Assembly (NCBI GenBank): GCA_019057815.1
Contig: JAHLWR010000003.1
Coordinates: 69,248-133,247, forward strand
DNA: 64,000 nt
DNA from: Candidatus Heimdallarchaeota archaeon
Lineage (GTDB): Archaea > Asgardarchaeota > Heimdallarchaeia > Heimdallarchaeales > Heimdallarchaeaceae
Direction: 5' to 3'
Shown: piece by piece, positions 22,925-41,665 of the stretch
Layout: each line of letters begins with the position of its first letter
Numbering within the stretch: position 1 is the stretch's first letter
Made by a program: the position numbers and the translations under genes
The notes under the pieces: model-generated
What the model saw: the letters and a program-made list of their open reading frames with translations, nothing else
Database searches by the model: none
What the model was told of the DNA's origin: nothing

Positions 22925-23023
22925 GTCTTTTTATGTCCCTTTTACTATATTGAAGTATGAAAAAGCAACAGCTGAAACAGTGGATATTACTATGAATATC
23001 ATCCCAAAGGATTCTAACATAAG
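22925..23023 (-). pseudogene. About 100-bp internal fragment of an MFS transporter gene, paralogous to the mid-region (about 24.72-24.82 kb) of the gene at 24302..25120, joined directly to the R2 repeat.
   Basis: 22953-23030 matches 24748-24810 with about 6 mismatches. The antisense ORFs 22920..23132 and 24594..24851 share KYEKATAETVDITMNIIPK only because of this duplication. Confidence 0.7.
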
Positions 23024-23083
23024 AAAAATAAAACTCTTGTCGTTTAAGCTGAAAAAAGATAACAAGAAAGAAAAAAGAGAGAG
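23024..23083. repeat. Repeat R2: the same 33-bp core plus purine-rich tract, exactly 1441 bp downstream of R1.
   Basis: Identical 33-mer aaaaataaaactcttgtcgtttaagctgaaaaa, followed by agataacaagaaagaaaaaagagagag. Confidence 0.8.
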
Positions 23084-23475
23084 TATACTACATACAATCT
23101 TAATTATTACCTGTTTATTGAGAAACTATTAAAAGAAATAGAAACTAGAGAATAACATCGAAGTAATTATCTTACTTCTCCTGGAGGGATTGGTTTATTA
23201 TGGCTACCTACTCTTTGTAAATATTTTCCAGAGTTTGTACAATGATGGTGTTTACTAAATCTAGGAACAAGAACACAAAGTATACCTAAATAAGTTGATG
23301 TAATTATTGTGTGAAATTCAGGTGTAAATGGAAGTAAAATTCTGTCTCTAGCAAGATTAACAATTTGATTTTAAATTTTATCTCTTTGCTTATAATCCAA
23401 AGGATATACTTCTTTGTTGTGGTCCATACTTGAGTATCGAGTGTTTTTTATACAAACTGAAGTCTACTTTGTATT

Positions 23476-24216
23476 ATGGATGAAGAGATTACCCAAGTAT
23501 CTAAGTTTCTTTTAGAATTCAATACATATTTGAATATATCATCAATCATATCAATAATGGAATTTGAAGGTATTAAACTTGAAATTGAAAAAATTGAGAC
23601 TTATCCAACTACTTTAACTGTACAGAATGAAGAACTCCAACGAGCTTTCGATACCTATAATAAAACTTTGACCATAGAAGGCTATATAAAATATAAGAAT
23701 AGGTTTGAATTGATTCATCTAAATACATTATTAGAAGCATATCTCTTTAATTGTTGCAAATATCATATAGAACAGCATAAAGATATTCTAGATTGTACTA
23801 AAATATTATTTAAAGATCTTAGAACAAAAGATACTGAAACAATAATTGATGAAAAAATTGAGAAATATCTTAATGATGCAATAATGTATGGAGATTACAC
23901 AGATATCTTTGAAAAGATAAAAAGAAAACTGAAATTGAATCAAATTGAAAGAATTCTTTCTGATGAGGTGGTTAGAGAATTAAATGAATTGAGTGCCAAA
24001 CGAAATTTAGTTTTGCACAGAAATGGAAGAATCGATAGAAAATATATACAAAAGATACACGATGATAATTCAGAAATTGGAGATAAACTACAAGTAGACA
24101 GCGAGTATATAAAACATATCAGATTAATAGTTATGACTTTTGCTATTGATTTTGACAATATTATTTGTGAATTGTACCCTAATCTAAAAACAAGTTTAAC
24201 ATATTATTATACTTGA
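23476..24216 (+). CDS. Hypothetical all-alpha protein with a candidate HEPN-type Rx4H motif, possibly an Abi-like RNase. It lies in the cassette bounded by R2 and R3.
   Basis: 246 aa, K/E/L-rich. ...LSAKRNLVLHRNGRIDRKY gives R-x4-H near the C-terminal third, as in HEPN families. No other recognisable domain. Confidence 0.3.
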   Translation: MDEEITQVSKFLLEFNTYLNISSIISIMEFEGIKLEIEKIETYPTTLTVQNEELQRAFDTYNKTLTIEGYIKYKNRFELIHLNTLLEAYLFNCCKYHIEQHKDILDCTKILFKDLRTKDTETIIDEKIEKYLNDAIMYGDYTDIFEKIKRKLKLNQIERILSDEVVRELNELSAKRNLVLHRNGRIDRKYIQKIHDDNSEIGDKLQVDSEYIKHIRLIVMTFAIDFDNIICELYPNLKTSLTYYYT

Positions 24217-24257
24217 TGAATTTCAATAAGCTTTTCTATTAAGCCTAGAAAAGATAC

Positions 24258-24334
24258 AATAAAACTCTTAGAATCTAAAAGAAAAGAAAAAGAAAGGAGT
24301 TTTAGTAATTTTTAGCAGATTTTTCAGGCTTGAC
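24258..24334. repeat. Repeat R3: a degenerate core (aataaaactctta...) plus purine-rich tract plus the authentic 3' end of the MFS gene.
   Basis: caataaaactcttagaatctaaaagaaaagaaaaagaaaggag followed by ttagtaatttttagcagatttttcaggcttgac. Confidence 0.7.
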
Positions 24335-25120
24335 CATAATTATTACCCCGAGTCCTATGACCATCATTATTCCGATAATCAACATAGCCCAACCATATGT
24401 TTTGTAGTTCCATTTATCATAAAAGACAATGAAAGCAAGACTCCATATTATTGGGCCTACAGCTGCAGAAACTTTACCGGATAACTTGGAAAAACCAAAA
24501 TATTCGCCAAATTTTTCCTTAGGAGCTAATGCAGCAACCATAGCTCTCTGAGCAACCCATGTACCACCTAAAGCAGGTCCAGCGAGTACACCCATGAGAA
24601 TTATCATGATAAAAGGGAAATTGAAACCAGTGTCTATAGGAGCCCAAATGAAAATACCTAAGATTCCAAGAGCTAGTGCTACAAACCAAAGGATTCCAAC
24701 TAAAATGAAAGCATTCTTAGCTCCTTTTTTATCAGCAAAGACACCGATGAAATATGAAAAAGCAACAGCTGAAACGGTGGATATTACTATGAATATCATA
24801 CCAAAGGTTTCAGACATAAGAAAACCGTCGCGAATTAAAGGGAACATATAAATCACTATCACATTCGCAACATCAACAAAGAGGAAATATCCGATAATAA
24901 AGATAAACATCTCTCTATGACGAGTAATCTCTTTAAAAGTACGTCCAAGACTCTTGAAAGTATCCTTTATTAGAACACCAGCAGAAGGTCTGTCTCCTTT
25001 TTTCTGTCTTTCTTTGACAAAGATGAATTCTACCCAAAATGTTGACTTTGTAACAATGGATTTGGAAAATTTCATCAAGTTCAATTCGACTTTTAATGAA
25101 TCTTCATCGGAGGAATTCAA
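24302..25120 (-). CDS. MFS-type transporter, C-terminal six-helix half only. It is 5'-truncated, so it may be a remnant or a half-transporter.
   Basis: 272 aa. It begins in what looks like the central cytoplasmic loop (VLIKDTFKSLGRTFKEITRHREMF) followed by about six TM helices. There is no room upstream for the N-terminal half, since the HDAC gene starts at 26463 and the + strand ORF 24954..25373 overlaps. Confidence 0.5.
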   Translation of the reverse strand: MNSSDEDSLKVELNLMKFSKSIVTKSTFWVEFIFVKERQKKGDRPSAGVLIKDTFKSLGRTFKEITRHREMFIFIIGYFLFVDVANVIVIYMFPLIRDGFLMSETFGMIFIVISTVSAVAFSYFIGVFADKKGAKNAFILVGILWFVALALGILGIFIWAPIDTGFNFPFIMIILMGVLAGPALGGTWVAQRAMVAALAPKEKFGEYFGFSKLSGKVSAAVGPIIWSLAFIVFYDKWNYKTYGWAMLIIGIMMVIGLGVIIMVKPEKSAKNY

Positions 25121-27153: not shown

Positions 27154-27260
27154 ACTACTAGTTCATATAGAAAAAGAGCTATTTAATACACTGTCGATAA
27201 AGTCAAATTTATAAAGGAAATTACGTATAGAAAATTGTACTAACTTAAAAGTCGTTTTCA

Positions 27261-27584
27261 ATGAAAGTAGATTCAGATAGAAAGGATTGCATTCTAACTT
27301 GTCGTTCCTTTATGTGCAGCAAACGAATGTTGAAAATAAAAAGAGATGGAGAAAGTAAAAGCTTTATTTGTCGCTTGGATGGATATGAATGTTTAGGATA
27401 CAGCTGCAGTTATGCTGAGTGTAGAGACAGATTACTTAGTGACGATGGAAGATGTTTAAAACCTGTTCAGAAGGATCAGAAACATCTTAGGGTAAAGAAT
27501 CTTGCATTTGAGCAACACAATAATAAGTTTCAACAAAATCTAGATGATAGAATTCAAAAGAAAATAAGCAGAAAGTTGAAATAA
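27261..27584 (+). CDS. Cysteine-rich small protein (8 Cys in the first 65 residues, basic C-terminal tail). First gene of a co-directional trio.
   Basis: Cysteines at positions 10, 14, 19, 37, 44, 49, 54 and 65. The spacing is not a canonical CxxC ribbon. Confidence 0.3.
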   Translation: MKVDSDRKDCILTCRSFMCSKRMLKIKRDGESKSFICRLDGYECLGYSCSYAECRDRLLSDDGRCLKPVQKDQKHLRVKNLAFEQHNNKFQQNLDDRIQKKISRKLK

Positions 27585-27649
27585 GGCTATGACTAAATCT
27601 TAAATATCTATAATGTAAAAGGTCTATAAGAATAAGATGTGATGTAAAA

Positions 27650-28429
27650 ATGATTCCTAATAGTTCTGGAACAGGTCAAAAAAAGCTTTTAACTTTCGGA
27701 ATACCAAGTCTTGATGAAATTTTAGGGGGAGGAATACCTCCTGGATCAAATGTTCTAATAGAAGATGCAATAGGTGCTGAAGCGGAGCCTTTTGTTCTAC
27801 AGTTTCTTGCTGAAGGCCTTAAAGCAGGTGAATACGGTTATATTATGTCGACAGAACACCCATACGACTATTATGTCGACATATTGAATGGGATAGGTGT
27901 TAACCCTGATATGCTATCAGCAACTGGGAGATTGCAATATATTGATGCTTTTAGCAACCCTTTTGGATATGCAGATAAGAGAGATTCACACCAACACACT
28001 GTAAACGATTTAAGCCAACCAAGAGAAATTAACGAGACAATAAGAAGAGCGTTTTTACACGTCCAAAATCAAAAAATCATGAAAAGAGGTATAGTCTTAT
28101 CACTTTCATCGATAATTTACGCATCCAACGAATCGAAAAATATCTTATTTTCTTTTCTACAAAATAGATTAGCAAGCAATAAAAATGATGGGTCTGTAAC
28201 AATTTTCTTACTGCATTACGATGCTCATGAACCGTTATTGGTAAGAGCAATAGAACATAATTGTGATGCAACTATAAGAGTATTAAAAGCTAAAACAGAT
28301 AATGATCGACCTATTACAGAAGTCCGAGTTGTTAATGTAAAAGGCAAACCTGAATTAGTAGGAGAACCAGTACTTTTCGAGTTCATAAGTGGAAAAATCT
28401 TACCCTATTATGAAGGTGAAAAGTTCTAG
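27650..28429 (+). CDS. KaiC/RadA-like RecA-superfamily domain protein with a degenerate Walker A, so predicted ATPase-dead.
   Basis: FGIPSLDEILGGGIPPGSNVLIEDAIGAEAEPFVLQFLAEG: the G-PGTGKT position reads AIGAEAEP, so the P-loop lysine is absent. Confidence 0.5.
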   Translation: MIPNSSGTGQKKLLTFGIPSLDEILGGGIPPGSNVLIEDAIGAEAEPFVLQFLAEGLKAGEYGYIMSTEHPYDYYVDILNGIGVNPDMLSATGRLQYIDAFSNPFGYADKRDSHQHTVNDLSQPREINETIRRAFLHVQNQKIMKRGIVLSLSSIIYASNESKNILFSFLQNRLASNKNDGSVTIFLLHYDAHEPLLVRAIEHNCDATIRVLKAKTDNDRPITEVRVVNVKGKPELVGEPVLFEFISGKILPYYEGEKF

Positions 28430-28449
28430 ATAACTCTTCATCCTTTTTT

Positions 28450-29055
28450 TTGATGGGAATTAAAGATAGGTTTAATAATCAATATGAAAAGAATAACACG
28501 AGAAACTTGATGTTTGATTACCTATTTAAAACGATAATTGTTGGAAATCCAGGAGTAGGGAAAACATCAATAACACTCCGATTTGCTACTGGAGTATTTA
28601 AATCAAGATATCTCCCAACAATAGGCGTAGAATTCTCAGTAAAAGATATTGAAGTGAAAGGACAGCACATAAAATTACAATTATGGGATACAGGAAGTCA
28701 TGATCGTTTCTCTTATATTAGACCAATGTATTATAGAGGAAGTTATGGTGTTCTGGTAGTTTGTGATTTAGCAAATGAGCTGACACTTAAAGAACTCGAT
28801 AAATGGTTCACAGAAGTGTACTCCAATACTGAGGAAGTGATACCAGCTATATTGATAGGTAATAAAGCTGATTTGGGTGATAAGCGCTTGATATCGACAG
28901 AAGAACTTTTGCAATATGCTTCAGAAAAGAAAGACGAGTACAAATTAGCTGAAATACCAGTCTATGAGGTTTCAGCAAAATCAGGGCAAAATATTAATGA
29001 TATTTACTATCGCTTAGCAGATTTAATGATTAAAAAATCTAATGAATCGGAATAA
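28450..29055 (+). CDS. Ras-superfamily small GTPase, Rab-like. The true start may be the internal Met at 28510 (MFDYLFKTIIVG...).
   Basis: G1 GNPGVGKTS, Rab-like TIGVEF, switch II LWDTGSHDRF (canonical WDTAGQERF), YYRGS, G4 GNKADL, G5 SAK. No C-terminal prenylation Cys. Confidence 0.75.
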   Translation: MMGIKDRFNNQYEKNNTRNLMFDYLFKTIIVGNPGVGKTSITLRFATGVFKSRYLPTIGVEFSVKDIEVKGQHIKLQLWDTGSHDRFSYIRPMYYRGSYGVLVVCDLANELTLKELDKWFTEVYSNTEEVIPAILIGNKADLGDKRLISTEELLQYASEKKDEYKLAEIPVYEVSAKSGQNINDIYYRLADLMIKKSNESE

Positions 29056-29164
29056 ATAACTTATAACTCTGCTTCTTCTCATGTTATTAATAAAAATCCA
29101 AATTTTCATTTTAATGAGGTTGTATGCAAATATTTAAGTTATTTTTACTCATTATAGTATATAT

Positions 29165-29747
29165 AATAAATTTAGATTGTTTTAGGTGAAAAAACTATGG
29201 CTAAAATAGTTGATGTCCGTATAAACGGAAGAGGAGGGCAAGGAGCTGTGACAGCTTCTCGTCTATTAGCAGAAGCAGCTATCATAGAAGGACAATATGT
29301 TCATGCTTTCCCTAACTTCGGTCCTGAAAGGGCAGGGGCTCCAGTTACGTCATTTTCAAGAATCAGCCCTGAGCCCTTTACAGAGAAAATAGAGGTTTAT
29401 AATCCAGATATCGTGGTTGTAATAGATTCTTCTTTGTTGGGTGATGTTCAAATAGCTGAAGGTTTAAAACCTGGAGGTATAATTATTTGCAACTACGAAG
29501 GGAAATTGGAATCGCTAAAACACTATTTTGAAGGAGTAGATTCTAAAATTTATAAGATATCTGGAACAAGAATTGCTAGGGAAGAGCTGGGAATAAATAA
29601 ACCAAATATGATAATGCTAGGTGCATTGTTAAAAGTTGTTCAGATTGTTAAACTTGAAAGTCTAATCAAAGTAACTAAAGAAAGATTCAAAGGTGTAATT
29701 GGTGAAAAAAATTCTAAAGCTATGAAAAGAGCATATAATGAGGTGAC
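29165..29747. repeat. Duplicated segment, copy A, about 583 bp. It covers the gamma-subunit gene (porG) plus about 30 bp of leader. The internal ~500 bp are identical to copy B at 30295..30877.
   Basis: Direct comparison shows differences only at the edges (first ~30 bp and last ~35 bp). Spacing 1130-1131 bp. Confidence 0.85.
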
Positions 29748-29766
29748 AGGCAATGGTACAATCTAA
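29197..29766 (+). CDS. porG: 2-oxoacid (pyruvate):ferredoxin oxidoreductase gamma subunit, orphan duplicate copy.
   Basis: MAKIVDVRINGRGGQGAVTASRLLAEAAI...; 189 aa. The C-terminus diverges (…VTGNGTI) and no delta subunit follows. Confidence 0.8.
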   Translation: MAKIVDVRINGRGGQGAVTASRLLAEAAIIEGQYVHAFPNFGPERAGAPVTSFSRISPEPFTEKIEVYNPDIVVVIDSSLLGDVQIAEGLKPGGIIICNYEGKLESLKHYFEGVDSKIYKISGTRIAREELGINKPNMIMLGALLKVVQIVKLESLIKVTKERFKGVIGEKNSKAMKRAYNEVTGNGTI

Positions 29767-30022: not shown

Positions 30023-30316
30023 ATGGTATATAAATTTCCAAGCAAAGGATGGATTGAATACTATAAGGACATTCTAAACAGTGAAAAGGGCAAACCATGG
30101 CAAAAAGCTGCTAAAGCGTGGGAAGGCGACTTTCTATTTGTTATAGAACCTGATGAAAAATTAAAGCAAGGGAACACTTTCTACATAAATCTATGGCATG
30201 GAGAATGTAGGAAAGTAGACAGCTCAGAGGATGGAAAAAAATTACCGGAATCTGAGTTTGAGTACAGAGGAATACTTACTCAAGATAGCTTAATTAATAA
30301 ATTTAGATTATTTTAG
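30023..30316 (+). CDS. Hypothetical 97-aa protein between the two gamma-subunit copies.
   Basis: ORF with no recognisable motifs (…WQKAAKAWEGDFLFVIEPDEKLKQGNTFYINLWHGECRKV…). Confidence 0.3.
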   Translation: MVYKFPSKGWIEYYKDILNSEKGKPWQKAAKAWEGDFLFVIEPDEKLKQGNTFYINLWHGECRKVDSSEDGKKLPESEFEYRGILTQDSLINKFRLF

Positions 30317-30877
30317 GTGAAAAAATTGTGGCTAGCATAGTTGATGTTCGTATAAACGGAAGAGGAGGGCAAGGAGCTGTGACAGCTTCTCGTCTATTAG
30401 CAGAAGCAGCTATCATAGAAGGACAATATGTTCATGCTTTCCCTAACTTCGGTCCTGAAAGGGCAGGGGCTCCAGTTACGTCATTTTCAAGAATCAGCCC
30501 TGAGCCCTTTACAGAGAAAATAGAGGTTTATAATCCAGATATCGTGGTTGTAATAGATTCTTCTTTGTTGGGTGATGTTCAAATAGCTGAAGGTTTAAAA
30601 CCTGGAGGTATAATTATTTGCAACTACGAAGGGAAATTGGAATCGCTAAAACACTATTTTGAAGGAGTAGATTCTAAAATTTATAAGATATCTGGAACAA
30701 GAATTGCTAGGGAAGAGCTGGGAATAAATAAACCAAATATGATAATGCTAGGTGCATTGTTAAAAGTTGTTCAGATTGTTAAACTTGAAAGTCTAATCAA
30801 AGTAACTAAAGAAAGATTCAAAGGTGTAATTGGTGAAAAAAATACTAAAGCTATTAGAAGAGCATATAATGAGGTGG
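30295..30877. repeat. Duplicated segment, copy B (operon-linked gamma-subunit copy).
   Basis: See copy A. Confidence 0.85.
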
Positions 30878-30882
30878 AATGA
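30328..30882 (+). CDS. porG: 2-oxoacid (pyruvate):ferredoxin oxidoreductase gamma subunit, operon copy, GTG start.
   Basis: 184 aa, identical to copy A except residue 3 (S for K) and the last ~10 residues. Its stop overlaps the delta-subunit start (ATGA). Confidence 0.85.
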   Translation: MASIVDVRINGRGGQGAVTASRLLAEAAIIEGQYVHAFPNFGPERAGAPVTSFSRISPEPFTEKIEVYNPDIVVVIDSSLLGDVQIAEGLKPGGIIICNYEGKLESLKHYFEGVDSKIYKISGTRIAREELGINKPNMIMLGALLKVVQIVKLESLIKVTKERFKGVIGEKNTKAIRRAYNEVE

Positions 30883-31220: not shown

Positions 31221-32407
31221 TAGAACCAATAGTTAAAGGAATGACAGGTGATGAGGCTGTTGCTTGGGCTGCAAAACAAATAAATCCAGATGTAATAGCC
31301 GCCTACCCTATCACACCCCAGACAATTATTGTTGAACGCTTTTCAGATTATGTGAATGATGGTTTAGTTGATACTTCATATATTCCAGTTGAATCAGAAC
31401 ATTCAGCAATGTCTGCATGTGTAGGTGCTTCAGCAACGGGAGCAAGAGTTTTTACTGCTACGGCTTCTGCTGGACTAGCTTTAATGTATGAAATTCTTTA
31501 TGTGGCTTCAGGTATGAGATTACCTATCGTTTTAGCTGTCGCAAACAGAGCTTTTTCAGCTCCAATTAATATACATGGAGAGTGCACAGATCAAATGGTC
31601 TGTCGCGATGCTTCATGGATTTCTCTTTTTGGTGAATCAGCACAAGAGGCATATGATGAAACTATTATGTCTTTCAAAATAGGAGAAAACCCAGAAGTAA
31701 TGCTTCCAACAATGTTTGGTATAGAAGGTTTTATTGTTACACATGCTCTTGAAAGAGTCGATACACTTCCTGACAAAACCGTTAAAGAATTTCTCGGTGA
31801 TAGAAGAGTAATACCAGCCTGTTGTACTTTTAACCCATTCGCTGTAGGAACTTTTGGTTCTTTAGTTTTACAAGATAATTACATGGAACTTAAAAGACAA
31901 CAAGAAGAAGCAATGCAAAAAGCTTATCACGTAACAAAAAATGTTATGGCAGAATTTTCCGAGATTTCAGGAAGGGATTACGAAATAATTGAAAAATATA
32001 ATCTTGAAGATGCTGACTATGCTTTTGTCTCGTATGGAGCAACAGCAGGGAATGCTAAAGCTGTAGTTGATCGTTTAAGAGAAAAAGGAGAAAAGGTTGG
32101 TTCACTAAAAATAAGACTATATCGTCCTTATCCTGTTTCTGACATCTATGAAGCTCTGAAAGGAATTAAAGCCGTATCTATTCTAGATCGTTCTGCAACT
32201 TTCGGTTCTCCAGCAACCATAGCTCAAAACGACTTGGCAGCAGCTCTTTATGGAAAGAAAGATGTTCCTACACTACATGGCTATATTAATGGTCTTGGGG
32301 GACGCGTTTTATTACTTCCTGAAATTGAACAAGTCTATGAACAGTCTAAGAAATATCATGAGGAGGGGAAAGCCTTGACTCAAGATTGGATAGGGTATAG
32401 AAGGTGA
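31217..32407 (+). CDS. porA: 2-oxoacid:ferredoxin oxidoreductase alpha subunit.
   Basis: MIEPIVKGMTGDEAVAWAA...; start overlaps the delta-subunit stop (ATGA at 31217-31220). About 397 aa. Confidence 0.8.
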   Translation: MIEPIVKGMTGDEAVAWAAKQINPDVIAAYPITPQTIIVERFSDYVNDGLVDTSYIPVESEHSAMSACVGASATGARVFTATASAGLALMYEILYVASGMRLPIVLAVANRAFSAPINIHGECTDQMVCRDASWISLFGESAQEAYDETIMSFKIGENPEVMLPTMFGIEGFIVTHALERVDTLPDKTVKEFLGDRRVIPACCTFNPFAVGTFGSLVLQDNYMELKRQQEEAMQKAYHVTKNVMAEFSEISGRDYEIIEKYNLEDADYAFVSYGATAGNAKAVVDRLREKGEKVGSLKIRLYRPYPVSDIYEALKGIKAVSILDRSATFGSPATIAQNDLAAALYGKKDVPTLHGYINGLGGRVLLLPEIEQVYEQSKKYHEEGKALTQDWIGYRR

Positions 32408-34482
32408 GGAATATGATAGAATTACAACGTGTTAACTTAAAAGAAATCTCTAAACTAGAACCTGCTCTAACAGGAGGTCATAGACTCTGCGCAGGATGTG
32501 GTGCAGGTACAATGGCAAGACAAGTAACTCTAGCTGCACAAGCTCTAAAGGAACCTTTTATGATTGTTAATGCCACAGGGTGCCTTGAAGTAGCAACAAC
32601 TATCTATCCATATAATTCATGGACCGTACCATGGTTGCATAATGCTTTTGAGAATGCAGCAGCAACAGCTTCAGGAACAATTGTAGCACTAGAAGCTCTG
32701 AGAAGAAAGAAACAACTAGAGTATGATCAAATAAATATATTAATTTTCGGAGGTGATGGGGGGACGTATGATATAGGTCTTCAGAGTCTATCAGGAGCAA
32801 TAGAAAGAGGACATGATTTTCTATATGTCTGTTATAATAATGGAGCATACATGAACTGCTTAAGTTTAGATACTTTCATTATGACTGAAGATGGTCTTAA
32901 ACGTGTAATTGAAATCCAATTGGGTGATCTTGTTTATGCTTTTGATCAGACTACAGGGGATTTGGTCTTAAAAGAATGTAGCGGTATATATGATAATGGT
33001 ACTAAAGAAGTCTATGAATTGAAAACACTACATCACTCAATAAAAACAACATTAAATCATCCATTTCTGACAGTTCAAATGAGTCGAAAGAAAGATGTGA
33101 ATGCTTTGATTTGGAAAACTCTTGAGCAATTAGAACTAGGAGATGAGATAATCGTTTTAAAGAAATTGACAGGTGGAAAGAGTTATACTTTCAAGAAAAT
33201 AGATCTCTCCGTAAGGGGAGATTTTAAAGTTCATAAAATAAATGAAATCCAACTACCAGAAAGTAGCAATCCAGAGCTAATGGAATTTCTTGGTCTGTAC
33301 ATAGGTGATGGTTGGACAAGATCTCATAAAGCTGAAACAGGATTTTCTTTTCCAGAGAAAACAGATGCGAGAGCGAGGTTAGTCTTCTTATCAAAGAAAT
33401 TATTTAATTTAGAACCTAGTACTACTAGTCTTAATGACGTATATTTATACTCTATAAATCTTGCACGGTTTATCGAATCACTTGGTTTTGGTAAAGGAGC
33501 TAAAAATAAGATTATACCATCTTGGGTCTTTACTATACCTCTTGAAGAAAAAGAAGCATTAGTTAAGGGATTAATGCAATCTGATGGATATATTGTAGGA
33601 AAAAGCAAAAGGTATGTTTCTGCTAGTTATGAATTGCTCAAAACATTAAGACTGTTATTGCAAACCATGAATTATAGAGTTGGAAAAATACATCAACAAA
33701 CAAAGAAAAAAGGAACGTTTGTAGTTTATAGAAAATTACTGGAAGATAGTAGCTACGGTTATGTCTGTTTTAGTAAAAAGAAGGAACCGAATATAGACAA
33801 ATATCTATCACAAATTAAACAGAGAAACTTCTTAGCAGAAAATAAATATTTTAGTTCAGAGAAAATTACTTCCATTGAATTCATTAAGGAAGAACCTACA
33901 ATAGATCTTAGAGTTGAAGATGAACATAATTTCATTGCAGATGGAATAGTCGTCCACAATACTGGAATCCAACGTTCTAGTGGAACCCCTATGTGTGCTT
34001 CCACAACAACCAGTCCTGCTGGAACTGTTATCCCTGGTAAGATTAAGTGGGCCAAACCTCTTCCAGATATTATGGCTGCTCATGGAATTCCAACATTTAC
34101 TGCTAGTCCCTTCTACCATCGCGATCTGATGTCCAAAGTTCAGGCTGGGTTAAACCATGAAGGTCCTGCTTTCCTTCTTGTCGATTCACCTTGCAACTTG
34201 GGTCAACGATACGAGCCTAACATTTCATTAGAAATAGCTAAACTCGCTGTTCAATCTTGTTTCTTCCCATTATACATGACATATCAAGATGAATGGGCAT
34301 TCACTAGTGAATCCTTAAGAATTGCTAATAATCCTGATAAAAAGGTTCCAGTTGAAGATTACCTTAAACTTCAAGGACGGTTCAAACATCTCTTCAAACC
34401 TGAATGGAAGGATAAGTTGGTTGAGATTCAAGAAACAATTGATAATCGTTGGGAACGATTAATAAAGAAAACAAAATACTAA
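32404..34482 (+). CDS. porB: 2-oxoacid:ferredoxin oxidoreductase beta subunit (TPP-binding) interrupted by an intein. 692-aa precursor, 324-aa extein.
   Basis: CAGCGAG...GGDGG TPP motif. Extein junction YNNGAYMN / TGIQRSSGTP matches the conserved PorB AYMNTG(N/I)QRS block. Confidence 0.85.
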   Translation: MRNMIELQRVNLKEISKLEPALTGGHRLCAGCGAGTMARQVTLAAQALKEPFMIVNATGCLEVATTIYPYNSWTVPWLHNAFENAAATASGTIVALEALRRKKQLEYDQINILIFGGDGGTYDIGLQSLSGAIERGHDFLYVCYNNGAYMNCLSLDTFIMTEDGLKRVIEIQLGDLVYAFDQTTGDLVLKECSGIYDNGTKEVYELKTLHHSIKTTLNHPFLTVQMSRKKDVNALIWKTLEQLELGDEIIVLKKLTGGKSYTFKKIDLSVRGDFKVHKINEIQLPESSNPELMEFLGLYIGDGWTRSHKAETGFSFPEKTDARARLVFLSKKLFNLEPSTTSLNDVYLYSINLARFIESLGFGKGAKNKIIPSWVFTIPLEEKEALVKGLMQSDGYIVGKSKRYVSASYELLKTLRLLLQTMNYRVGKIHQQTKKKGTFVVYRKLLEDSSYGYVCFSKKKEPNIDKYLSQIKQRNFLAENKYFSSEKITSIEFIKEEPTIDLRVEDEHNFIADGIVVHNTGIQRSSGTPMCASTTTSPAGTVIPGKIKWAKPLPDIMAAHGIPTFTASPFYHRDLMSKVQAGLNHEGPAFLLVDSPCNLGQRYEPNISLEIAKLAVQSCFFPLYMTYQDEWAFTSESLRIANNPDKKVPVEDYLKLQGRFKHLFKPEWKDKLVEIQETIDNRWERLIKKTKY
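32857..33960 (+). mobile_element. Intein in the beta subunit. 368 aa with LAGLIDADG endonuclease motifs.
   Basis: Begins with Cys (CLSLDTF) and ends VVHN followed by +1 Thr. Motifs LGLYIGDGWT and LMQSDGYIV. Codon positions verified (tgc at 32857, aat at 33958-33960). Confidence 0.8.
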
Positions 34483-40837: not shown

Positions 40838-41665
40838 TTATGCTTTGAACCACAATTTTAACTCTGGAAAATGGAACACTTCATTTTTTTCACCTAGAAC
40901 AAAGAATTCCATCAGATTAATGTTTACTTGCGTTCTTAAGATAGGGGATAATAATGATTTTTGATTCAAGGGTGTAATGGGTGTTCCTGCAGAATATACT
41001 GTATAAGCTGGCATTACAATGATTTTTGCGTCATAATTTATTAAAGGTCCAAGTAAGAATGAAGGCGCTTTCAATTTTTGAATTTTATTCACTTTCTGTT
41101 CAAAGACAGGGTGTTCATGACCTATTATCACATAATGAACTGAAGAAGGAAGATGTTCAGGTAATGGCTGATCACCATGAGTAAAGTAATAATTCTTAAA
41201 AACAAAAGACTCTGGATGGAAATGAACATTAGTATATTCTCTAGCTACCCAGTTAAGAAAAATGTCATGGTTTCCTTTAATTAAATGAATATCCTTAACT
41301 AGTTTGGAAACAGCTCCTACAAATTTCTTTACATCTCTATTTTCGATTTTTGAAGGTTCTTGAAAAGAATGTTTTACATCTCCATTAAGTACAAGCATAC
41401 AAGGTTTAATCTGTTTAATTAGTAGTTTTATTGTATTGATAACAGAATCTGTCTGATTATAAGGAGTAAAAGATCCATCCTCATTCATAATAGCTTCTAT
41501 TCCCAAATGTAAATCTGAAATTACAAGCGCATTAATATCCTCTAAAAATAAAACTGGTTGGGCATTTATTATACTAATCAACGAGGATATTTGGTATTTA
41601 GTGAACGATTTCATGTAATTCCTTTTTCCATATTTTTGAAGATAAGAAGCTGTTAACGTGTTCAA
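40838..41665 (-). CDS. Calcineurin-like metallophosphoesterase.
   Basis: ISDLHLG, NGDVKH, GNHD, GHEH metal-binding blocks. Confidence 0.65.
   Translation of the reverse strand: MNTLTASYLQKYGKRNYMKSFTKYQISSLISIINAQPVLFLEDINALVISDLHLGIEAIMNEDGSFTPYNQTDSVINTIKLLIKQIKPCMLVLNGDVKHSFQEPSKIENRDVKKFVGAVSKLVKDIHLIKGNHDIFLNWVAREYTNVHFHPESFVFKNYYFTHGDQPLPEHLPSSVHYVIIGHEHPVFEQKVNKIQKLKAPSFLLGPLINYDAKIIVMPAYTVYSAGTPITPLNQKSLLSPILRTQVNINLMEFFVLGEKNEVFHFPELKLWFKA

Follow-up and report, generated by a model that had tools for sequence, protein, structure and literature searches.

We analysed a window of 64,000 nucleotides (positions 69,248 to 133,247 of contig JAHLWR010000003.1, assembly GCA_019057815.1, forward strand) from a Candidatus Heimdallarchaeota archaeon of the family Heimdallarchaeaceae, in which three neighbouring genes encode a small cysteine-rich protein (Cys107), a KaiC-like protein without a P-loop (pKaiC) and a Rab-like GTPase. 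All coordinates without a locus label are positions in this window. The three genes appear in the list of open reading frames (ORFs) as follows:

27261-27584, + strand, Cys107 (107 aa)
27650-28429, + strand, pKaiC (259 aa)
28450-29055, + strand, GTPase (201 aa from a TTG codon; probable start 28510)

The sequence-only reading of this DNA had described a co-directional trio and quoted a set of motifs, and both descriptions were borne out: the three ORFs lie on the + strand as described, GIPSLDEILGGGIPPGS and AIGAEAEP are found in the 259-aa protein, and TIGVEF, WDTGSHDRF, YYRGS, NKAD and SAK are found in the GTPase. As mechanical ORFs, Cys107 and pKaiC are separated by 65 bp, and pKaiC and the GTPase by 20 bp. 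The GTPase orthologues begin with M-x-FDYLFK, and the N-terminal extension of the mechanical ORF contains a conserved promoter-like box. ATG 28510 is therefore the most likely start of the GTPase (181 aa), which would leave a gap of 80 bp after pKaiC. Orthologues of all three genes occur on more than 35 independent contigs, with all eight Cys of Cys107 invariant, and the three ORFs are real, selected genes of a Heimdallarchaeaceae genome and not chance ORFs. The window is AT-rich (about 32% GC). Upstream of the trio are a histone-deacetylase-family gene (HDAC, minus strand) and the gene for CDP-archaeol synthase (CarS), and downstream is a pyruvate:ferredoxin oxidoreductase (POR) cluster. Identical DNA of the locus is also present on a public contig of 6.2 kb, and the closest genome contig belongs to a Heimdallarchaeota metagenome-assembled genome whose pKaiC is 94% identical.

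The gene order was compared within a close clade, defined as the loci that are labelled Heimdallarchaeaceae or Heimdallarchaeota and whose pKaiC shares 68% identity or more with the window protein. In this clade, and in this clade only, the block of major facilitator superfamily (MFS) transporter, HDAC, CarS, Cys107, pKaiC, GTPase and POR gamma is kept as a whole over a neighbourhood of 8-10 kb. Since the whole block is equally conserved, the adjacency of the trio is no more informative than that of the lipid and central-metabolism genes around it. In 14 of 22 relatives, pKaiC and the GTPase are separated by a 187-aa antisense gene that is absent from the window (L numbers denote the fetched loci):

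L003, L004, L006-L009, L011, L012, L014, L016, L017, L021, L023 and others (for example L014:6777-7340, minus strand), antisense P-loop-kinase-like gene with weak Pfam matches to AAA_18 and cytidylate kinase

Two loci, L024 and L082, have the GTPase in inverted orientation. In the nearest outgroup, whose pKaiC is 54% identical, the order is RsmB, pKaiC and unrelated genes, and neither Cys107 nor a GTPase of the window type stands beside pKaiC in that outgroup or in any other Asgard lineage examined. Thus the proposal that the trio is conserved as a block holds within one family-level clade and fails in the outgroup and the other Asgard lineages.

Comparison of the orthologous intergenic regions revealed candidate transcription signals in front of each of the three genes and behind pKaiC:

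27208-27215, + strand, TATA-like box TTTATAAA, about 46 nt upstream of Cys107
27600-27609, + strand, TATA-like box TTAAATATCT, about 41-50 nt upstream of pKaiC and followed by a GAGATGA/GTGATG ribosome-binding-like motif
28444-28451, + strand, T8 run, 15 nt past the stop codon of pKaiC, candidate oligo-T terminator
28471-28478, + strand, TATA-like box TTTAATAA, 32-39 nt upstream of ATG 28510

Nearly all orthologous loci have an (A/G)TTTATA(A/T)A element at equal distance from Cys107, together with an 'aagtagtttt' leader. In the spacer between Cys107 and pKaiC, a (T)TTTAA(A/T)AT(A/C)T element and a GAGATGA-like motif are conserved, and the spacers of the orthologous loci contain no T run longer than five. 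The element 'agctacaacttt(c/a)gata(g/a)ATTTAAGTA' is conserved in most GTPase orthologues and stands equally far from the start codon in each. T runs of at least eight occur just 7 times on this strand of the 64 kb, and a run of five to ten T is found at the same place in 6/6 loci in which the GTPase directly follows pKaiC (L001, the window's own contig, is counted among them). Oligo-T runs act as terminators in archaea, and it is on this basis that the T8 run is read as one. We infer that the TATA-like boxes act as archaeal promoters and the T8 run as a terminator, so that the locus would most simply have three promoters, and transcription would terminate after pKaiC. The GTPase would then be transcribed separately, from its own promoter-like element downstream of the terminator-like T run. 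A scan for bacterial-type promoters and terminators gave 12 sites against 14 expected and no hairpin terminators, and is uninformative for an archaeon.

Taken together, these results make it probable, in our judgement, that Cys107, pKaiC and the GTPase are three separately promoted genes in a lineage-specific gene-order block and not a conserved three-gene module. Neither co-conservation beyond general synteny nor an interval free of internal transcription signals, as expected of a conserved module, was found for the trio. The claim of a three-gene module was therefore not upheld: the unrelated HDAC, CDP-archaeol synthase and POR gamma genes are equally syntenic, and antisense insertion, inversions and internal signals interrupt the trio itself.

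The protein pKaiC belongs to the KaiC-like RecA-fold proteins. It matches the Pfam family KaiC (PF06745) at 1.8e-14 and gives sub-threshold NCBIfam matches to both KaiC and ArlH, and in the PDB the profile of its family finds KaiC (3e-23) and PH0284 (2e-20), a single-domain protein from archaea. The structures nearest to the AlphaFold2 (AF2) model of pKaiC (mean predicted local distance difference test score, pLDDT, 85.9) are PH0284, SSO2452, KaiC-CI and FlaH, and a RecA-like alpha/beta core homologous to that of KaiC CI and PH0284 is present. The P-loop, on the other hand, is replaced by E-D-x-I-G-x-E-x-[DE], which reads EDAIGAEAE in the window protein (residues 38-46). Profile alignments and multiple alignments both place EDAIGAEAE exactly on the G-x-x-G-x-G-K-T/S of canonical KaiC-like proteins (GVPGVGKT or GPTGSGKS); therefore the Walker A Lys has become Ala and the Thr has become Glu. 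In every member of the family inspected (more than 40), the Walker A Lys and Thr are missing and an acidic loop, E-[DEQV]-x-x-G-x-x-x-[DEN], takes the place of the P-loop, with Glu invariant at the position of the first Walker A Gly. In place of the Walker B Asp, the window protein has Leu149 (GIVLSLS vs the canonical VVLDSLS); among the aligned sequences the Asp is lost in Heimdallarchaeaceae and the Kari-type lineage and kept in Hod, Thor and the P0019-type.

The sequence-only reading had called the KaiC-like protein ATPase-dead. Realignment recovered no functional Walker A, and the description holds for the entire family because the Lys and Thr are absent from every member inspected; in the window clade the Walker B Asp is gone as well. 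pKaiC is also the best conserved protein of its neighbourhood, with 71-78% identity across the clade as compared with 44-57% for the deacetylase, and the loss of the motifs is therefore not decay. Binding or hydrolysis of ATP in the canonical mode would be impossible for such a protein. Most likely, pKaiC would serve as a nucleotide-independent scaffold or adaptor, and it would probably form rings, as its nearest structural relatives suggest.

Archaeal KaiC-like domains are known to lose their ATPase motifs. According to PMC5847659, which cites Makarova et al. 2017, inactivated KaiC-like domains ('iKaiC') have already been described in archaea, and pKaiC, with a KaiC-like fold and disrupted ATPase motifs, agrees with the definition of an iKaiC. 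Like iKaiC and the archaeal single-domain KaiC-like proteins (PH0284/UPF0273, SSO2452, ArlH/FlaH), pKaiC has the Pfam KaiC match, the GIPxLDxxLGGG lead-in and IEHxxDG. Unlike them, pKaiC stands alone without fused sensor or output domains, belongs to a family restricted to Asgard archaea with an acidic P-loop replacement and an invariant Glu, and has as neighbours either lineage-specific small zinc-type proteins or a PdeM-like phosphoesterase. A description of the Asgard pKaiC family was not found in the searchable literature, the coverage of which does not include the primary iKaiC paper (Makarova et al. 2017).

A word-index search returned 45 relatives of pKaiC, the named ones all from Asgard archaea (Heimdall, Hod, Prometh/Loki and Thor), and a scan of one genome per GTDB species returned 57 pKaiC loci labelled as Heimdall-, Hod-, Kari-, Borr-, Hermod-, Prometh- or Thorarchaeota. 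When 1.84 billion representatives were searched exhaustively with a profile, just 18 clusters (50% identity) matched with E<=1e-30; the next matches, down to about 1e-23, also lack GK[ST], the named ones being from Thor and Baldr, and proteins with a canonical Walker A start at about 1e-24. By these sequence criteria, pKaiC belongs to a small family that is found across the Asgard archaea and consists of inactivated, single-domain KaiC-like proteins with a RecA fold.

The neighbours of pKaiC change from lineage to lineage. In Hod, Loki, Thor, Hermod and Prometh the order is a CofE-like gene (minus strand), pKaiC and a small gene that we call c1, with overlapping stop and start codons in some loci. 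The pair of pKaiC followed by c1 is found in 25/31 distant genome loci and on further contigs. In Kari-type and related lineages, a PdeM/SbcD-related metallophosphoesterase (MPE, TIGR00024-like) follows pKaiC instead, and the codons overlap or abut in several of these lineages. The loci are:

L034-L053, L055, L058, L065, L067, L069 and L094-L107 (for example L038:6747-6974), c1
L025, L026, L031, L033, L062, L063, L090, L091, L093 and L106, MPE after pKaiC

The c1 protein is basic, 68-75 aa long, has the pattern C-x4-C ... C-x2-H-Y-[RK]-K-I-K-K and gives no Pfam or NCBIfam match. In Borrarchaeum, c1 is convergent with pKaiC. The 64-kb window contains no homologue of c1; it does contain an MPE homologue (40850-41602, minus strand), which lies 13 kb off and is unlinked to pKaiC. 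A scan of metagenomes found pKaiC in the three types of context already known and in no other. In the Kariarchaeaceae-type loci L025, L026 and L028, a tRNA-splicing endonuclease gene is located about 1.3-1.8 kb upstream of pKaiC, together with a gene for a Pro/Ala-rich low-complexity protein, and the Hod loci have a similar Pro-rich protein (c8) 2 kb upstream of pKaiC. The recurrent neighbours point to small zinc or basic partners of pKaiC, possibly in nucleic-acid transactions, and the likeliest partners would be small zinc/basic proteins or the phosphoesterase.

These neighbours also bear on the idea that pKaiC is the Asgard counterpart or precursor of the eukaryotic RecA-fold scaffolds that have no P-loop, namely Elp4/5/6 of Elongator and the Walker-less Rad51 paralogues. 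The family is restricted to Asgard archaea, the closest known archaeal relatives of eukaryotes; Kari-type loci have DNA- or tRNA-related neighbours, i.e. the PdeM-like nuclease and, in three of them, the tRNA-splicing endonuclease gene; and pKaiC matches the Pfam family PAXNEB (Elp4, PF05625) at 4e-8 and 33.1 bits (cut-off 28), with PAXNEB and occasionally Elp6-family matches precomputed across the family. However, the PAXNEB match is limited to residues 14-61 and spans the GIPxLDxxLGGG lead-in that KaiC, RadA and Elp4 have in common, and canonical KaiC-like proteins match PAXNEB likewise. While the PDB search with the family profile gave KaiC at 3e-23, chains of Elp4/5/6 were absent at E<=1, and no eukaryotic protein was among the close matches. 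In addition, Elp4/5/6 and the Walker-less Rad51 paralogues resemble pKaiC no more than Rad51 or DnaB do, whereas archaeal KaiC-like proteins resemble it much more, by sequence and by structure alike. Nothing relevant on Elongator or Elp4 in Asgard archaea was found in the searchable literature. A specific affinity of pKaiC to Elp4/5/6 was thus rejected as a generic match of the lead-in, and we regard an ancestral or equivalent relationship to these scaffolds as highly improbable.

Cys107 has eight invariant cysteines (C10, C14, C19, C37, C44, C49, C54 and C65), which form two C-x3/4-C-x4-C...C sets, and its C-terminal helix is basic. The protein probably carries two Cys4 metal sites. Its orthologues, mostly 40-50% identical to the window protein, are detectable in the Heimdallarchaeaceae clade only, and searches against Pfam, NCBIfam and PDB profiles gave no match. 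Cys107 is a clade-restricted orphan and probably a metal-binding neighbour of pKaiC. A 107-aa ORF upstream of pKaiC in the outgroup L059 was considered as a possible Cys107 and discarded, being unrelated and not Cys-rich.

In every close-clade locus with enough upstream sequence, Cys107 lies directly upstream of pKaiC, and this adjacency is uninterrupted even where CarS is absent (L018, L019 and L054). The functional unit could accordingly be the pair of Cys107 and pKaiC, with Cys107 taking the role that c1 has elsewhere as a small zinc/basic protein and with the GTPase as a bystander. The spacer of 62-92 bp (167 bp in one locus) contains no T run, and in other lineages it is again a small basic protein with Cys and His, c1, that is the tightest neighbour of pKaiC. 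Against the pair, Cys107 and c1 have no detectable homology (hhalign probability 0.3%, by which Cys107 was excluded as a homologue of c1), the TATA-like box that the spacers have in common suggests a separate promoter for pKaiC, the AF2 model of Cys107, built from a shallow alignment, is unreliable (pLDDT 43) and lends no structural support, and no such pair occurs outside one family-level clade. In the window clade, Cys107 would be the best candidate for a direct partner of pKaiC, as its invariant adjacency suggests; as a full account of the locus, the pair remains a tentative reading, to which we give less credence than to three separately promoted genes.

The third gene encodes a GTPase that matches the Pfam family Ras (PF00071) at 3e-43. 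The closest solved structures are all Rabs (Rab35, Ypt1, Rab10, Rab8 and Rab1 at about 1e-37; top PDB matches 1e-37 to 1e-32), and the identity to eukaryotic Rabs is 35-40%. The G1 (GNPGVGKT), G2 (T in PTIGVEF), G4 (NKAD) and G5 (SAK) motifs are intact, and YYRGS and the RabF-like IGVEF are also kept, in line with the earlier description of the protein as Rab-like. The G1, G4 and G5 motifs, IGVEF and YYRGS are shared with Asgard RasL proteins and eukaryotic Rabs. In published work, proteins like the window GTPase fall into the Asgard RasL (Rab-like) group, whose members relate to Rab, Ras, Rho and Ran collectively and are not true Rabs, and no Asgard sequence was found to be specifically sister to Rabs (bioRxiv 10.1101/2024.02.28.582541). 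The C-terminus of the window GTPase is ...KKSNESE, and no orthologue has a terminal Cys motif, while the eukaryotic matches have one; other Asgard Rab-like proteins likewise have no prenylatable C-terminal Cys (PMC10933270).

The G3 motif of the GTPase is DTGS followed by His. A gapless alignment with Rab35 sets WDTGSHDRF on WDTAGQERF, so that the Gly of DxxG is replaced by Ser and the catalytic Gln by His. Among 32 orthologue clusters, switch II reads DTGSH in 28, DTGGH in 3 and DTGSQ in 1. The altered switch II of the earlier description is thus confirmed, with His at this position in 31 of the 32 clusters. Since the nearest paralogues of the GTPase (42-45% identity) have DTGGQ and eukaryotic Rabs have DTAGQ, the clade-wide DTG[S/G]H is a derived, fixed character of one clade. 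To judge from the orthologues, the change in switch II is fixed under selection, and the DTG[S/G]H GTPase is confined to one family-level clade. With its other motifs intact, the protein would be expected to bind GTP. In Ras, the roles of Gly60 and Gln61 are established, and a His acts in the translational GTPases. On the basis of this biochemistry, GTP hydrolysis by the window GTPase would be slow, or would use the His, with or without a partner, in place of the canonical Gln. The impaired or partner-dependent hydrolysis predicted in the sequence-only reading is in this sense a reasonable expectation.

Several observations weigh against three separately promoted genes. Promoters and terminator were called from conserved motifs, and the genome is AT-rich. 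Throughout Heimdallarchaeaceae, pKaiC and the GTPase are within 1.1 kb of each other and nearly always co-oriented, and HDAC is just 44-57% identical across the clade, so that some constraint on gene order is possible. Moreover, genes of GTPase systems recur beside pKaiC relatives in three other lineages. One lineage (L031, L062 and L093) has a different Ras-like GTPase directly upstream of pKaiC and MPE, with a gap of 65 bp and no oligo-T run between GTPase and pKaiC; in the P0173 clade, a Roadblock/LC7 gene is convergent with pKaiC; and the Baldr cluster of a distant family member holds a longin/RB-like-GTPase fusion (383 aa). In the approximately 750 kb of fetched loci, no further Ras-like or Roadblock gene was found. 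The Ras-like and Roadblock/LC7 genes are located at:

L062:5375-5935 (also in L031 and L093), Ras-like GTPase; switch II is WDLAGERQF, in which Glu takes the place of the catalytic Gln (DLAGE)
L070:4829-5125, minus strand, Roadblock/LC7 gene, 28 bp downstream of pKaiC

A second, divergent GTPase-like gene (251 aa) adjoins the Ras-like GTPase of L062, and likewise in L031 and L093. The Baldrarchaeia cluster (L071/L072:79-8742) also contains an Arc_PepC_II peptidase fragment, two canonical KaiC-like ATPases, the KaiC-like protein P0186 without a P-loop and large coiled-coil proteins, and may be a KaiC-centred system.

On this evidence, the trio, or pKaiC and the GTPase, could form a signalling module in which a pseudo-ATPase ring acts as an effector of the GTPase, as a regulator resembling a GTPase-activating protein (GAP) or a guanine-nucleotide exchange factor (GEF), or as a platform, with Cys107 as a third subunit. 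The co-directional neighbourhood kept throughout Heimdallarchaeaceae is consistent with such a module, as are the independent order of GTPase, pKaiC and MPE in L031, L062 and L093, in which the GTPase is again without the Gln, the Roadblock/LC7 and longin/RB-like-GTPase genes, and the rough enrichment of GTPase or Roadblock genes near pKaiC in non-redundant contexts (p about 0.01-0.02). The enrichment estimate, however, is post hoc and drawn from few independent contexts; at least five other independent pKaiC contexts have no gene of a GTPase system, and such a neighbour is missing in most pKaiC lineages (Hod/Loki/Thor/Hermod/Borr, Kari, L063, L059 and L108). The GTPases of the L062 type and of the window are not orthologues, because they are just 32% identical. 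Between pKaiC and the GTPase there are the T8 run, the separate conserved promoter-like box, the frequent antisense insertion and an occasional inversion, and unrelated housekeeping neighbours are just as syntenic. We therefore consider the recurrence suggestive but weak, and a signalling module unlikely.

A real link between pKaiC and a GTPase is, in our estimate, also unlikely, and perhaps slightly more so. The most specific proposal of this kind, that P-loop-less KaiC-like rings are platforms or regulators of Gln-less Ras-like GTPases (DTGSH or DLAGE) with the zinc proteins Cys107 and c1 as adaptors, seems to us rather improbable; if true, it would be a partnership of GTPase and pseudo-ATPase not described before. 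Published work notes that Asgard GTPases generally lie outside the operons of their regulators, and that gene order rarely reveals their partners (PMC10933270). The three separately promoted genes remain the preferred reading of the locus.

The trio had also been likened to MglA-MglB or Roadblock-GTPase pairs. As in MglA/MglB and Rag/Roadblock pairs, a small GTPase stands beside a non-enzymatic putative partner, and the pKaiC relative in L070 has a Roadblock/LC7 neighbour. The likeness does not extend to the trio itself, which has no Roadblock/MglB-like or longin partner: Cys107 and pKaiC have no Pfam match to Robl_LC7 or longin, and jackhmmer with the L070 Roadblock protein found nothing in the window. 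The partner candidate has a RecA fold, and the pairing is confined to one family.

To our knowledge, the partners of the many small GTPases of Asgard archaea are largely unknown, and an association of pKaiC with the GTPase, if true, would add a new type of GTPase partner. At present, the value of the analysis is a corrected picture of three individually interesting genes with no demonstrated module. A Rab-like GTPase in which Ser and His are fixed throughout a clade is a natural experiment on the rewiring of hydrolysis. The family of P-loop-less KaiC-like proteins spans the Asgard archaea, and its tight neighbours alternate between c1 (a CCCH mini-protein), the PdeM-like phosphoesterase and the 8-Cys protein. 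Within the 'dark matter' of Asgard genomes it is a small and tractable subject, and pKaiC could be a nucleotide-independent RecA-fold scaffold that is in principle analogous to Elp456 and the Rad51 paralogues.

Three further observations were made in the surroundings of the trio. Downstream, a direct repeat of 96% identity (29145-29444 and 30276-30575, spacing 1131 bp) was found, and the POR gamma gene is present in two near-identical copies (29197-29766 and 30328-30882) with a 97-aa ORF without a Pfam match (30023-30316) between them. Since the relatives checked have a single POR gamma gene, either the gene was recently duplicated in tandem or the second copy is an artefact of assembly. Upstream, the ORF of an Atg22-like MFS transporter (24302-25120, in the region 22952-25120, minus strand) covers the C-terminal half of the Pfam model only, while its orthologues are about 464 aa long; a 25-residue MFS fragment recurs at 22952-23026, and a 246-aa ORF without a Pfam match (23476-24216, + strand) lies between. 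This arrangement suggests that the transporter gene is disrupted or rearranged, and a similar split is seen in L002. Further downstream, the thiamine pyrophosphate (TPP)-binding (beta) subunit of POR (32404-34482, + strand, 692 aa) is interrupted by an intein with a LAGLIDADG homing endonuclease (Intein_splicing, LAGLIDADG_3 and Hint).

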